The translations under genes were made by a program, and so were the position numbers. From Bythopirellula sp. (GTDB lineage: Bacteria; Planctomycetota; Planctomycetia; Pirellulales; Lacipirellulaceae), in assembly GCA_965216565.1 (NCBI GenBank), contig OZ244170.1:1600001-1664000 (forward strand): a stretch of DNA of 64,000 nucleotides, written 5' to 3'. Below the pieces are notes generated by a model. It did not search any database. It was not told where the DNA came from and worked only from the letters and a program-made list of their open reading frames with translations. Below, in pieces: positions 127-4,814 of the stretch (position 1 is its first letter; every line of letters starts with the position of its first letter).

Positions 127-594
127 CTAAGCATGCAAGACAGGAGCGGCAGACTCCTCGGCTATTCGCTTTACGTCCTCTAGAACAGATTCGATACACT
201 TGCTGGTGATATCGCCCGTAAGATTAACCAGAGGCAAGAGCAATCTGGCGAGCAACGTTTGCGGGGTCGCGTTGCACACCACTCGCAGATGTGTGCCAGC
301 AATATCTGGGATCAACAGAAACTCGGTCCGATAGTGCGCACCGCTCGACTCACACTCCACGACATAGCTTTGAGGCGGGTCGAACGAGGTGATTACCAAT
401 TCTTCCGTGGCTTGCTTACCAAACATCGTCCGAGTTTCACGAAACCGCGTGCCGACGCCGATAGGACCCTCCGTTAGGATCTCAAGCTCTTCGATTCCGC
501 GGATGTTCTCTGGTGCATTGTGTAGATCGGCCAGCACTCGAAACACTTCTTCTCGAGTAGCATTGATGTGTTTACCGATAGAAATCTGGGCCAT
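127..594 (-). CDS. SRPBCC (polyketide cyclase/dehydrase-like) family protein
   Basis: 155 aa; N-terminal I-x-A-x-x-E-x-V-F pattern, GPIGVGTRFRETR motif and C-terminal helix typical of SRPBCC. Confidence 0.8.
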   Translation of the reverse strand: MAQISIGKHINATREEVFRVLADLHNAPENIRGIEELEILTEGPIGVGTRFRETRTMFGKQATEELVITSFDPPQSYVVECESSGAHYRTEFLLIPDIAGTHLRVVCNATPQTLLARLLLPLVNLTGDITSKCIESVLEDVKRIAEESAAPVLHA

Positions 595-1748: not shown

Positions 1749-3770
1749 TTGAACCTGAGAACGAACTTCCCCGTGAACGAAAAAGCCCCCCCCATCCAAC
1801 GCGGCTCTGTGGTTGCGAATTGCGCCTTAGCTACCGGTTGCCTACTGGCAATCAGCTTCTATTCGTCCGGATTCTCCCTGCTCGCCTGGATTGCACTGGC
1901 ACCGTTAGGTGTCGTTCTGTCCACAAAAAAAATGACCCTACGCTGCTGGGCGGGAATCTACTTGGGGGGCCTGATTTTTCATCTGTGGGCGCTCGATTGG
2001 ATTCGCACCTTATACGGCGGCTTTGCGTTGGAAGGCAACTATGCACCAGGTTGGCTAATCTGCGGGCAACTCGGCGCTGTGATATTCTGCCTAATGATCC
2101 TTGCAGGTCGGCGGCTAGTTCTGACCTCGAAACTTCCCGTGACTCTCGCGCTTCCCTTTGCTTGGTACTTCTATGAAACGATGCAATCTTTGCTGATGAT
2201 GGCGTTCGACCAACACGCCATGCGCTACTTGAGCCTGGCTCATACGCAGGCCGATTACCCGCTCATCTCGCAAATTGCCGATCTAGGGGGCGAGTTAACT
2301 GTCAGCCTGCTCGTCGCCCTCGTGAATGGATTTATCTACGATCTTCACTTTGTGCGAATCGATCTCCCGTTCCGCAAGTGGGACTGGAATCTTGTGGCTC
2401 GTTGCGTCGGTGTTCCGATCATTTTCACGGGTTCGATTTCGTACGGATATTTTCGCATGCATCAACCCGTTCAAGAGACGGGACCCAACATTTGCCTCAT
2501 GACTCGGCACGACCTGCCGCCTTTGATCAAACCAGACCGATTGCCATCGGCGGACAAAACCGATCTATATGTCTGGCCCGAGCTGGCTTATCACCACGCC
2601 ATCATCGATGCCCAGAGCAGCGCTCAAAAAGAGGCCACAATTGCTGCTCATTGGCCATTAACTCGCGGCGACGTTGAGGGCTACAGACATCGAATTTCTG
2701 ACTATCTGCAGCAAACCGCACAAAACCTGAATGCGAACCTGTTAATCGGAGTCGAAAGACTCTCGGCCGAGGATGATCAAATTAGCACTTTCAACTCACT
2801 GGCGTATGTCCATCCGGAAGCCGGTGTTGTAGGAACCTACGATAAGGTGCACTGCGCACCATTCCGCGAATTTGCTCCCGCTCACTGGGAGTGGCTCCAG
2901 ATTGCTGTGCCCGTTGAATATTCCCGGGGCAAATCCCCCACAACATTTGCGCTTTCTACTTCCACGGGCGACGAGCTCACGTTTGGATGTGGCCTGTGCT
3001 ACGAAGTTGCCTTTCCTGACCATTTCCAACAGCAGATGGAAAACTCTCAGCTCGACTTTTTCGTCTTGGCTGGAAGCGAAGCAAGCGACTCAACAGGAGT
3101 CTTGGCGAAAACACTATTACGCATGGCCCAACTACGCGCCATCGAAACACGTCGGCCCATTGTTCGCAATGCACATAGGGGCTATTCGGGTTGGATCGAC
3201 AGTTGCGGACGAATCGTTTCTGTATCCGATCGCAACGAACTAGCGCAACCACGGGCTCTCACGCCCACTCAACTCGATGCCCGAATCAGCTACTACGCTC
3301 AGTGGGGCGATTGGCTTTCGCCACTCATGATTAGCCTCTTTGCAGTCGCATTGATCTTGCCCAACGTCCAGCAACTTATGAAATCACTCAGAACCATTGG
3401 CACGGGAACCACCTCGCCCAAATTCCCTCCACCAGTTCGACGAGCTCGCGGTAGCGGCTTCTCCCTCTTTGAACTGATGGCGGTTGTTGCCATTTTGAGC
3501 ACGATTGCAATATTGATACTACCTCGCGTCACGGGTGCTACCGATGCGGCCAAAGAACGGGCAGACAAAATGAATATTGCGTTGCTCAACTCTGCGGCCG
3601 AACGCTGGTATTTGGACAAAGGCGCGTGGCCCGCGATCAACCTGAGCGACATTGGCGCGGACCCCAACTATTTGCCAGAGGGTATTCCAGTTAGCCCTCA
3701 TACCGGCAAAGCGTACAAACTCAACTCATTCACGATGCGGGTCAACAGTACCGGCGGTGGCGGAAAATAA
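1749..3770 (+). CDS. lnt: Apolipoprotein N-acyltransferase with a fused C-terminal type IV pilin/pseudopilin-like domain
   Basis: N-terminal TM helices; QIADLGG; nitrilase triad motifs VWPE, YDKVH..PFRE and LCYE..FP; AQLRAIETRRPIVR; then in-frame G|FSLFELMAVVAIL prepilin motif. The TTG start is uncertain. Confidence 0.85.
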   Translation: MNLRTNFPVNEKAPPIQRGSVVANCALATGCLLAISFYSSGFSLLAWIALAPLGVVLSTKKMTLRCWAGIYLGGLIFHLWALDWIRTLYGGFALEGNYAPGWLICGQLGAVIFCLMILAGRRLVLTSKLPVTLALPFAWYFYETMQSLLMMAFDQHAMRYLSLAHTQADYPLISQIADLGGELTVSLLVALVNGFIYDLHFVRIDLPFRKWDWNLVARCVGVPIIFTGSISYGYFRMHQPVQETGPNICLMTRHDLPPLIKPDRLPSADKTDLYVWPELAYHHAIIDAQSSAQKEATIAAHWPLTRGDVEGYRHRISDYLQQTAQNLNANLLIGVERLSAEDDQISTFNSLAYVHPEAGVVGTYDKVHCAPFREFAPAHWEWLQIAVPVEYSRGKSPTTFALSTSTGDELTFGCGLCYEVAFPDHFQQQMENSQLDFFVLAGSEASDSTGVLAKTLLRMAQLRAIETRRPIVRNAHRGYSGWIDSCGRIVSVSDRNELAQPRALTPTQLDARISYYAQWGDWLSPLMISLFAVALILPNVQQLMKSLRTIGTGTTSPKFPPPVRRARGSGFSLFELMAVVAILSTIAILILPRVTGATDAAKERADKMNIALLNSAAERWYLDKGAWPAINLSDIGADPNYLPEGIPVSPHTGKAYKLNSFTMRVNSTGGGGK

Positions 3771-3773
3771 CGC

Positions 3774-4814
3774 TCAGCTGGACGCATTGTCTTCGTATTC
3801 CTGCACGGAACTCTCGTCCGAGAGCTCCTGCACTCTACGCAACCCCGGCATTTTCCAGAGGCTGAATTGCGCGATGATCACCAGCGAGACGATCATTACT
3901 AAACGATCGAGTAGTGCTGCCGCCAGCGCCTCAGCTTTAGTCGCTCCAGTCACACTCGCGCCGTAGACAATTGCGGCTTCACGGAATCCCAAGTTGCCGG
4001 GGGTGAAGCTAAAAAAGAATGCCAAGTCGGCTAACAACGAAGCGACCATCACCCCGGTGAAATGCGTCTCGACGTCAATTCCCCAAAAGGCAACTTGCAG
4101 ACGCATCGCGCGAGCAAGGATCGACGTCAGTTGCAAGCCGACCAAGCGCAACAACAAGTTTCGATTGCGGCTCAACACATGCCACGATTCGCTAAGTCCT
4201 CGGAAAAAATGGGCAAGCTTGCCGGGCCAAGAGTCGGGGACCTTAACTCGCACCAACAAGGCAATGGCGGCACCGATCACGCAACAGACAAAAACAGTCA
4301 GGATTTCCCAGGGCGGAGCGATTCCTTCCAATCGCCACAGCAGCGCAAGACCTGTCATCCCTAACATGCCAATGACAAAGCACTGCACAAGCGCGATCGG
4401 GAACAACAAACCCGTGTAAGAAGCAAATCGAACACCATAGCGTTTCTTTAAGTAGACTCCCGTCACACCGAATCCAGAACGGGGAATGAACAATCCCGAA
4501 TAGGCGCGCAGCATCAACAGATTGAATGCTTCCATCCGACCGAGGCGAGTGCCAATCGCCAGCAGCGTCTGTCGGAAGATCTCCGACGCGAAAATCCGGT
4601 TTACGAATGAGATGGCTAATATTGCCGCCACATATCGGGGACTCACTTCCAGAAGCTTCGGCAGGTCGCCCCAATAGCGTCGTCCCAGATAGGCGAGCAG
4701 TACGAGCGAGGCCACCGACAGAACCTTCCGCCACGGTCCCGACCGTTTGCGAGGGTTGGCCTCCAGAGCCTCTTCGGTCGGTGCGTCGGTTGTCATAGAT
4801 AACAGGGCAGGCAA
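3774..4814 (-). CDS. Lysylphosphatidylglycerol synthase TM / UPF0104 flippase-like membrane protein
   Basis: Multi-TM protein with TPGNLGFREAA...AAALLDR motif; start uncertain. Confidence 0.75.
   Translation of the reverse strand: MPALLSMTTDAPTEEALEANPRKRSGPWRKVLSVASLVLLAYLGRRYWGDLPKLLEVSPRYVAAILAISFVNRIFASEIFRQTLLAIGTRLGRMEAFNLLMLRAYSGLFIPRSGFGVTGVYLKKRYGVRFASYTGLLFPIALVQCFVIGMLGMTGLALLWRLEGIAPPWEILTVFVCCVIGAAIALLVRVKVPDSWPGKLAHFFRGLSESWHVLSRNRNLLLRLVGLQLTSILARAMRLQVAFWGIDVETHFTGVMVASLLADLAFFFSFTPGNLGFREAAIVYGASVTGATKAEALAAALLDRLVMIVSLVIIAQFSLWKMPGLRRVQELSDESSVQEYEDNASS

Follow-up and report, generated by a model that had tools for sequence, protein, structure and literature searches.

The window studied here, that is, the whole 64,000-nucleotide segment of Bythopirellula sp. 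DNA, carries at positions 1749–3770 of the forward strand one open frame of 673 aa, in which an Lnt-fold enzyme, a paralog of the lipoprotein N-acyltransferase Lnt that we call Lnt2, is joined through a linker to a type IV pilin. Its likely start is TTG 1749 or GTG 1773, the latter being that of the gene call in the protein collection, which corresponds to residues 9–673 of the fusion. The enzyme part shows the complete Lnt layout, with the LNT_N membrane domain (aa 30–194, 1836–2330; above the Pfam cut-off), a nitrilase-like periplasmic domain (about aa 244–512, 2478–3284) and the last membrane helix (TM8, 3315–3368). The catalytic triad recognised in the preliminary description is present as E278 (2580–2582), K366 and C417 (2997–2999), corresponding to E267, K335 and C387 of E. 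coli, and is accompanied by the fourth residue E374 (E. coli E343; K366 and E374 span 2844–2870). Two neighbouring histidines, H282-H283 (2592–2597), are typical of the pilin-linked clade described below, and the sequence GSEASD (aa 442–447, 3072–3089) stands where ordinary Lnts have the acceptor-site loop TND(A/G)W(F/Y).

Behind TM8, a basic, poorly conserved linker (3369–3455), which would lie in the cytoplasm and includes an unconserved ATG at 3378, leads into the class III cleavage motif G570|F571...E575 (3456–3473), in the context RRARGSG|FSLFELM, with the Gly codon at 3456–3458 and Glu at +5 as originally proposed. The predicted mature pilin (3459–3767) has 103 aa and no Cys, and it ends in a GGGGK tail (3753–3767) that had gone unmentioned before; its last residue, K673 (3765–3767), is our proposed acyl acceptor.

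The NCBIfam lnt model (TIGR00546) gave 128.2 bits against a cut-off of 132.9, so that the fusion falls just below the score of an Lnt equivalog. The GspG and ComGC models matched aa 569–629, both below cut-off (33.5 against 88.85 bits for the GspG equivalog of type II secretion systems, T2SS), while a 130-aa pilin piece scored above cut-off with TIGR02532 and below it with Pfam N_methyl. In the AlphaFold model of the fusion (mean pLDDT 85), the linker was disordered, and Foldseek matched this model first to solved Lnt structures (PDB 5n6h, 5n6m; E 1.8e-21). The pilin part modelled alone formed a 52-residue helix (aa 3–54) with a small head (pLDDT 86), and all of the first 13 listed Foldseek matches were pilins or pseudopilins, the best at E 0.2 and none significant. 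The motif has the basic stretch, G at −1, F at +1, E at +5 and hydrophobic helix of class III signals, but in place of a short N-terminal leader it has 570 residues up to the cut; of the 73 class III-like ORFs in the genome, no other has its motif beyond the first 200 aa.

Regarding the surrounding genes, a convergent LPG_synthase_TM (flippase-like) gene (window positions 3774–4814, reverse strand) ends 3 bases from the stop codon of the fusion; it was discarded as a functional partner, as different genes follow the fusions in genomes G020 and G045. In addition, a polyketide-cyclase-like ORF at 127–594 (reverse strand) has its C-terminal 99 residues repeated just upstream of the window (L004:15128–15427, reverse strand), which is a short local duplication.

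The continuous frame is not an artefact. In sequencing run X1, which may be the source of the assembly, one contig carries the whole stretch without indels, and the same is true of run X5, from another study and a second strain, with 19 substitutions; inside the fused gene these alter 14 codons, 10 of them silently, and no codon becomes a stop. In X6, a contig covers 2524–3450, also without indel. An assembly error or lost stop, which the preliminary description had advised checking for, is thus ruled out by indel-free contigs from two studies and by the same architecture in 15 other proteins: 10 full-length fusions (37–51% identity, among 35 matches), four more among the best 150 representatives, and one in genome G045.

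Among 11 aligned fusions, mean identity was 42–44% for the enzyme, 12% for the linker, 70% for the pilin helix, 58% for the pilin head and 67% for the tail. The cleavage site was kept in the 14 fusions checked, always with G or A at −1, F at +1 and E at +5 behind a basic linker. A free prepilin initiated at ATG 3378 (M544), suggested earlier, found no support: at the DNA level, no start codon occurs in G020 (protein P0007) or G045 from the last Lnt helix to the cleavage site, and ATG 3378 itself is unconserved and lacks a Shine-Dalgarno-like, purine-rich stretch of the kind that precedes the conserved pilin of the filament cluster of this genome. A Met does occur somewhere in the linker of 7 of 14 fusions.

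Prepilin peptidase cuts on the cytoplasmic side of the membrane. Both ends of E. coli Lnt are reported to be cytosolic (PMC5500890), that is, on the same side, and the layout of the fusion would therefore allow the cut. Judged from sequence conservation, prepilin peptidase probably cleaves at G570|F571, so that the enzyme would be the leader of the pilin and both would be made 1:1. This agrees with the polyprotein proposed in the preliminary description, given a site kept in 14/14 fusions while the linker drifts to 12% identity. The genome encodes both a PilD-like prepilin peptidase and a cognate assembly system. The peptidase appears to be split into two genes, L259:1258–2646 (reverse strand), whose N-terminal domain has no Cys, and a stand-alone Cys-bearing A24_N protein at a separate locus, L286:1249–1794 (reverse strand). 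A second, short A24 peptidase (L258:1300–1929, reverse strand) lies beside a gene that we take from its sequence to be CpaB-like, presumably of a Tad/Flp system, and in G045 (L099:8377–11272) the fused gene faces TadE/TadG-like genes.

Lnt2 as a divergent second Lnt

An ordinary lnt gene, whose presence had been raised as a check, is located elsewhere in the genome (C1:3960152), and its product is 25% identical to the fused copy. A profile of the Lnt2 clade scored above 500 bits in 8 of 120 genomes of the family, with ordinary Lnts below 245, and matched 22 of 401 genomes of the order and none of 400 other genomes drawn across the phylum (E 1e-85); among the genomes searched, Lnt2 was not found outside the order. 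Named relatives belong to Planctomycetota. A metagenome scan returned 80 loci, mostly of distant, ordinary Lnts, a genome scan six loci, three of them close, and the ESM Atlas Lnt clusters only, under 0.9.

The residues E278, K366, E374 and C417 are invariant in all 22 pilin-linked Lnt2 proteins. In contrast, positions 252, 373, 419, 443, 446 and 447, which are Q, G, E, N, W and F/Y in 11–12 of 12 ordinary Lnts, are mostly replaced in them; those replaced include the equivalents of E. coli G342, N412, W415 and F416, within a mapping that is approximate at aa 442–448, where a shift of the register by one or two positions is possible. In E. coli, G145, V339, G342, Y388, E389 and F416 are reported as essential, with G342 and F416 lining the substrate cavity, and E343 is tied to formation of the lipid acyl-enzyme (PMC5500890). 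The present protein keeps Y388 and E389 and shows A157, A370, R373 and D447 for G145, V339, G342 and F416, respectively. Conversely, H282 and H283 are each found in 20 of 22 pilin-linked Lnt2 proteins, in 3 and 4 of 14 of those linked to DUF1559 proteins, and in none of 12 ordinary Lnts. By its sequence, then, Lnt2 keeps the catalytic core with the lipoprotein-acceptor side rebuilt, and it is by these acceptor-site residues that the fused protein falls outside the ordinary Lnts.

An enzyme tree (quick IQ-TREE, 73 rows) placed the 13 fused and the nine pilin-adjacent Lnt2 proteins in one clade (SH-aLRT 100). Inside it, the fusions are nested (support 93) next to the unfused pair of G044, whose pilin groups with the fused pilins; two proteins lying within the fused clade, P0008 and P0017, have no pilin, and the P0010 sequence is truncated. 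Nine relatives encode enzyme and pilin as separate genes, and such unfused pairs are arranged tail-to-tail and not as one operon.

A prepilin-like gene was fused to, or within about 1.5 kb of, 21 of 30 Lnt2 loci versus 0 of 22 ordinary lnt loci, counts in which some contigs end early and two loci with an identical ORF list (L273 and L278, from different genomes and contigs) may represent one event. At nine of the 30 loci, Lnt2 is fused to a small pilin or lies tail-to-tail with one, at 12 it adjoins or is fused to a DUF1559-type prepilin, and the other nine have neither. DUF1559 is a large, unexplained family; its three fusions to Lnt2 (P0065, P0101 and G182) fall on other branches than the pilin fusions. 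The idea of a dedicated Lnt paralog coupled to pilus biogenesis is thereby borne out, and it is compatible with the polyprotein reading, the two not being alternatives.

At several of the DUF1559-linked or other Lnt2 loci (L055, L056, L057, L132, L265, L269, L284), genes for a C39 peptidase, MauE, rhodanese and DUF1573 proteins were observed and, in some of them, small Cys-rich secreted ORFs, in what looks like a recurrent locus for the maturation of peptides or surface proteins. In one of them, an ORF joining MauE and DUF1559 domains (L056:9432–11297, reverse strand) lies directly upstream of Lnt2.

The Gly-Lys tail of Lnt2-linked pilins

The small pilins linked to Lnt2 belong with those of a type IV filament cluster located about 48 kb from the fusion (C1:1.549–1.561 Mb), which includes genes for a response regulator, an ATPase, a platform protein, pilins, PilX- and PilN-like proteins, a secretin and a lipoprotein. 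The lipoprotein is PilP-like (L002:5047–5565), and a protein with a lipobox-like VVSGC sequence follows the secretin. Of 120 family genomes, 106 were found to have pilins of the cluster, as against 8 with Lnt2, and the fused pilin is a fourth one, since none of the three cluster pilins is missing from G000 and G020. In many genomes, the reverse pilin of the cluster is faced by a LamG-type protein, a possible pilus adhesin, which varies greatly in length but is conserved at its C-terminal end (L039:8916–11540, L097:14730–15572, L035:628–5637, L036:4144–7974).

The tail, taken as the residues after the last conserved strand, contains Lys in 24 of 24 Lnt2-linked small pilins, as Gly-Lys in 23 and as Gly-Trp-Lys in P0038 (P0179 was excluded from this count, as its end leaves the family, probably by a frameshift). 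Among 158 unlinked pilins, Lys was present in the tail of five and Gly-Lys in one, and among the 94 of them with a tail of at least five residues the counts were four and one. When the rule was relaxed to GK anywhere within the last 12 residues, two unlinked pilins were added, from G065 and G115, with the GK before the last strand, and the per-genome match of G056 is of the same type. By genome, the tail occurred in 8 of 8 with Lnt2 versus 1 of 74, in genomes that are related rather than independent and in many of which the pilins were only partly sampled. The exception, G015, has a tail but no Lnt2 match; there, the pilin gene sits at the end of a contig, and the assembly gave no match to any Lnt.

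In six cases the tail Lys is internal, which points to its side chain. The codons vary (AAA and AAG for Lys, mixed Gly and stop codons), and the tail is found on both Cys-containing and Cys-free pilin lineages. In view of the varied codons and the different downstream genes, we rejected the idea that the tail merely reflects DNA signals (a terminator or an overlap, for example), and a scan for promoters and terminators remained at chance level.

Comparison of related loci showed the same association. G007 and G008 share flanking genes and have sister pilins (support 98), but only G007 has Lnt2 in between and a GGK tail. Similarly, Lnt2 lies between the pilin and the LamG gene facing it in G014, G021 and G102, whereas in G004, G009, G010 and G016 the LamG gene faces the pilin with neither Lnt2 nor tail. 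As for independent contrasts, there are two pairs on well-supported branches, which agree in direction (sign test p 0.5), and seven on all branches. These are too few for significance, and the correlation may reflect few events. In addition, the partner ends seen at 12 DUF1559-linked Lnt2 loci have no Gly-Lys tail, yet the changed active site is shared there, so the acceptor of the Lnt2 family may be something else.

A proposed pilin-lipidating module and its alternatives

The preliminary description missed the main point of this work, to which the rebuilt acceptor site, the Gly-Lys tail that occurs with it and the interface modelled between enzyme and pilin all lead. When enzyme (aa 12–550) and pilin (aa 571–673) were modelled as separate chains, the complex scored 0.66, against 0.01 for the best of three controls, in a model of two halves of one gene built on a custom alignment and with unrelated proteins, not pilins, as the controls. 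Of 157 solved complexes, 116 attained this score, as did 2 of 215 mismatched pairs. Between runs, at least 89% of the contacts agreed, with 86–111 contacts and a partner pLDDT of at least 76, and no Lnt-pilin entry was among the structure matches listed.

In the model, helices aa 64–81 and 99–126 of LNT_N contact the pilin helix, which runs along aa 64–75 and 94–107, and the pilin head lies on aa 253–259, 282–283, 303–304 and 383–389, with H282-H283 as the closest contact. Enzyme aa 89–107 and 383–389 align to the E. coli segments A72–L101 and N336–S364, which are described as forming the lipid-facing cavity (PMC5500890). Thus, in the model, the pilin helix probably docks at the lipid-facing opening of Lnt2, the site of the diacylglyceryl chains in ordinary Lnt. 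Pilin residues 659–664 touch the enzyme, and residues 665–673, including the lysine, are outside the confident contacts. Taken together, the altered acceptor residues, the tail and the modelled interface suggest that the pilin itself is the substrate of Lnt2.

We propose that the locus could encode a pilin-lipidating module, consisting of an eight-helix Lnt with both ends in the cytoplasm, the basic linker and a prepilin helix that would cross back out. Prepilin peptidase would cut G570|F571 at the cytoplasmic face and free the pilin, whose helix would then dock on Lnt2 at the place that a lipoprotein's diacylglyceryl chains would take (PMC10313180); Lnt2 would pass a phospholipid's acyl chain, via C417, to the lysine of the tail, on the periplasmic side. 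The product would be a fatty-acylated minor pilin for the type IV filament system of the genome, with the acyl chain as a lipid anchor or hydrophobic tag. This full chain, from release by the peptidase to periplasmic acylation of the lysine, is a tentative proposal to which we give slightly less than even weight. With similar reserve, it may represent a second bacterial route of lipid modification, derived from Lnt and without lipobox, Lgt or signal peptidase II, in which a pilin helix is recognised instead of diacylglycerol, and sister branches of Lnt2 may do likewise for DUF1559 proteins. Acylation of the N-terminal Phe of the pilin was set aside, as the model contacts would place it on the cytoplasmic side. 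To our knowledge, the N-terminal cysteine of lipoproteins has been regarded as the sole residue on which Lnt acts, and lysine acylation by an Lnt fold is a step that we infer; ordinary Lnt is reported to need only diacylglyceryl-Cys (PMC10313180). The main weakness of the acyl-lysine reading is that the DUF1559-linked relatives share the rebuilt site without the tail.

This same weakness favours a rather unlikely alternative, in which the pilin, cleaved or not, would stay bound as a partner subunit with a role in targeting, gating or priming Lnt2. The enzyme would acylate a different molecule of the envelope, be it a further pilus protein, a peptide or a glycan, and the lysine of the tail would serve as a contact or transient acyl carrier. 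The large interface of 86–111 modelled contacts, the C39 peptidase, MauE, rhodanese and DUF1573 genes of the tail-less loci, and a pilin part better conserved than the enzyme (58–70% versus 42–44%) would fit with it, but the cleavage motif is intact in 14/14 fusions, a free amine on a flexible tether suits Lnt chemistry, and the presence of the tail follows that of Lnt2. A different thioester chemistry would also suit the tail, as a terminal lysine on a flexible end is apt for cross-linking, and amidases are among the enzymes with the nitrilase fold. In Braun's lipoprotein, an L,D-transpeptidase joins a lysine to peptidoglycan. Lnt2 might cross-link the lysine to a protein or wall peptide, or remove an acyl group, or an L,D-transpeptidase might tie it to peptidoglycan. 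However, we consider this improbable, since the membrane domain is retained whole, as is the equivalent of E343, tied to lipid acyl-enzyme formation; an anchor made by a transpeptidase would not follow the presence of Lnt2, and the lysine is internal in six tails.

Two further readings keep the chemistry or the proteins ordinary. The full Lnt fold and catalytic residues could belong to a second lipoprotein N-acyltransferase for pilus lipoproteins, such as the PilP-like and VVSGC proteins of the cluster, whose fusion would only couple expression; second copies are reported in mycobacteria and Streptomyces (PMC3850990). Nevertheless, this is quite improbable, as essential acceptor-side residues are replaced, ordinary Lnt is described as promiscuous (PMC10313180), so that no special copy would be needed, the cluster occurs in 106/120 family genomes but Lnt2 in eight, and the tail is left unexplained. 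Very improbable is an incidental fusion of two independent proteins without functional link, the pilin being cut off or made from ATG 3378. This codon does exist, seven of 14 fused linkers have a Met, and nine relatives have separate genes, but G020 and G045 lack a linker start codon, 3378 lacks a ribosome-binding stretch, linkage persists in unfused genes on opposite strands, and Lnt2 is also fused to DUF1559 prepilins on other branches.

Comparison with known systems

In conclusion, the finding of a prepilin-coupled Lnt clade is real, conserved and unexplained by known systems. Such a clade with a rebuilt acceptor site was not found in the literature searched, and it stands even should the lysine idea fail; the tie between Gly-Lys tail and Lnt2 linkage is a new observation. 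Nothing was found on Lnt, pilin and Planctomycetes together in main texts, mostly of papers outside subscription, nor on polyprotein cleavage by prepilin peptidase in mainly open literature. If true, acylation of a pilin lysine in the periplasm, fed by phospholipids, would be a new pilus modification and a new reaction for a well-studied enzyme, and a directly testable one, as it names one residue and one enzyme; likewise, prepilin peptidase would be able to split a polyprotein with a 570-residue leader. The clade is also a first handle on the DUF1559 family, members of which adjoin or are fused to the same enzyme clade.

Lnt2 has in common with the Lnts of E. coli and P. aeruginosa (PDB 5n6h, 5n6m; TIGR00546) the fold, the eight-helix layout, the E-K-C triad plus E343, and both ends in the cytoplasm. 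It differs in being an extra copy beside an ordinary lnt, with the QGN, PFGE and ND(A/G)W(F/Y) motifs replaced, a score below the NCBIfam cut-off, and linkage or fusion to prepilins. In mycobacterial Lnt-Ppm1 (Rv2051c, BCG_2070c), a second domain behind an active Lnt is likewise fused in some species and split in others; however, the added domain there is a glycosyltransferase, the Lnt keeps its usual job, and the available text describes no cleavage site (PMC3850990).

With type IV pilins and T2SS major pseudopilins (GspG, ComGC, PilA), the pilin part shares the class III motif and, in its model, the long N-terminal helix and the small head, but its leader is a 570-residue enzyme where theirs is described as a short peptide (PMC13721041). 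The Gly-rich Lys tail is a further difference. Pilins are reported to be methylated, glycosylated and phosphorylated, acylation not being seen in the available text of these sources (PMC10450907, PMC13721041). A dedicated enzyme modifying its own pilin is described for PilO/TfpO (PMC10450907). Those enzymes add glycans or phospho-groups, whereas Lnt2 would fatty-acylate. As would be the case for Lnt2, enzymes of the PilO/TfpO type act in the periplasm and are encoded adjacent to the pilin.

Finally, fatty acylation of lysine side chains is carried out by the RTX-type acyltransferases HlyC, CyaC and CdiC, which are an analogy only. These act in the cytoplasm with acyl-ACP as donor. The acylated lysines of HlyA are reported to lie in Gly-Lys motifs (PMC8510554), as would that of the Lnt2-linked pilins, but the site of CdiA itself is not Gly-Lys, and these enzymes are unrelated to Lnt2.
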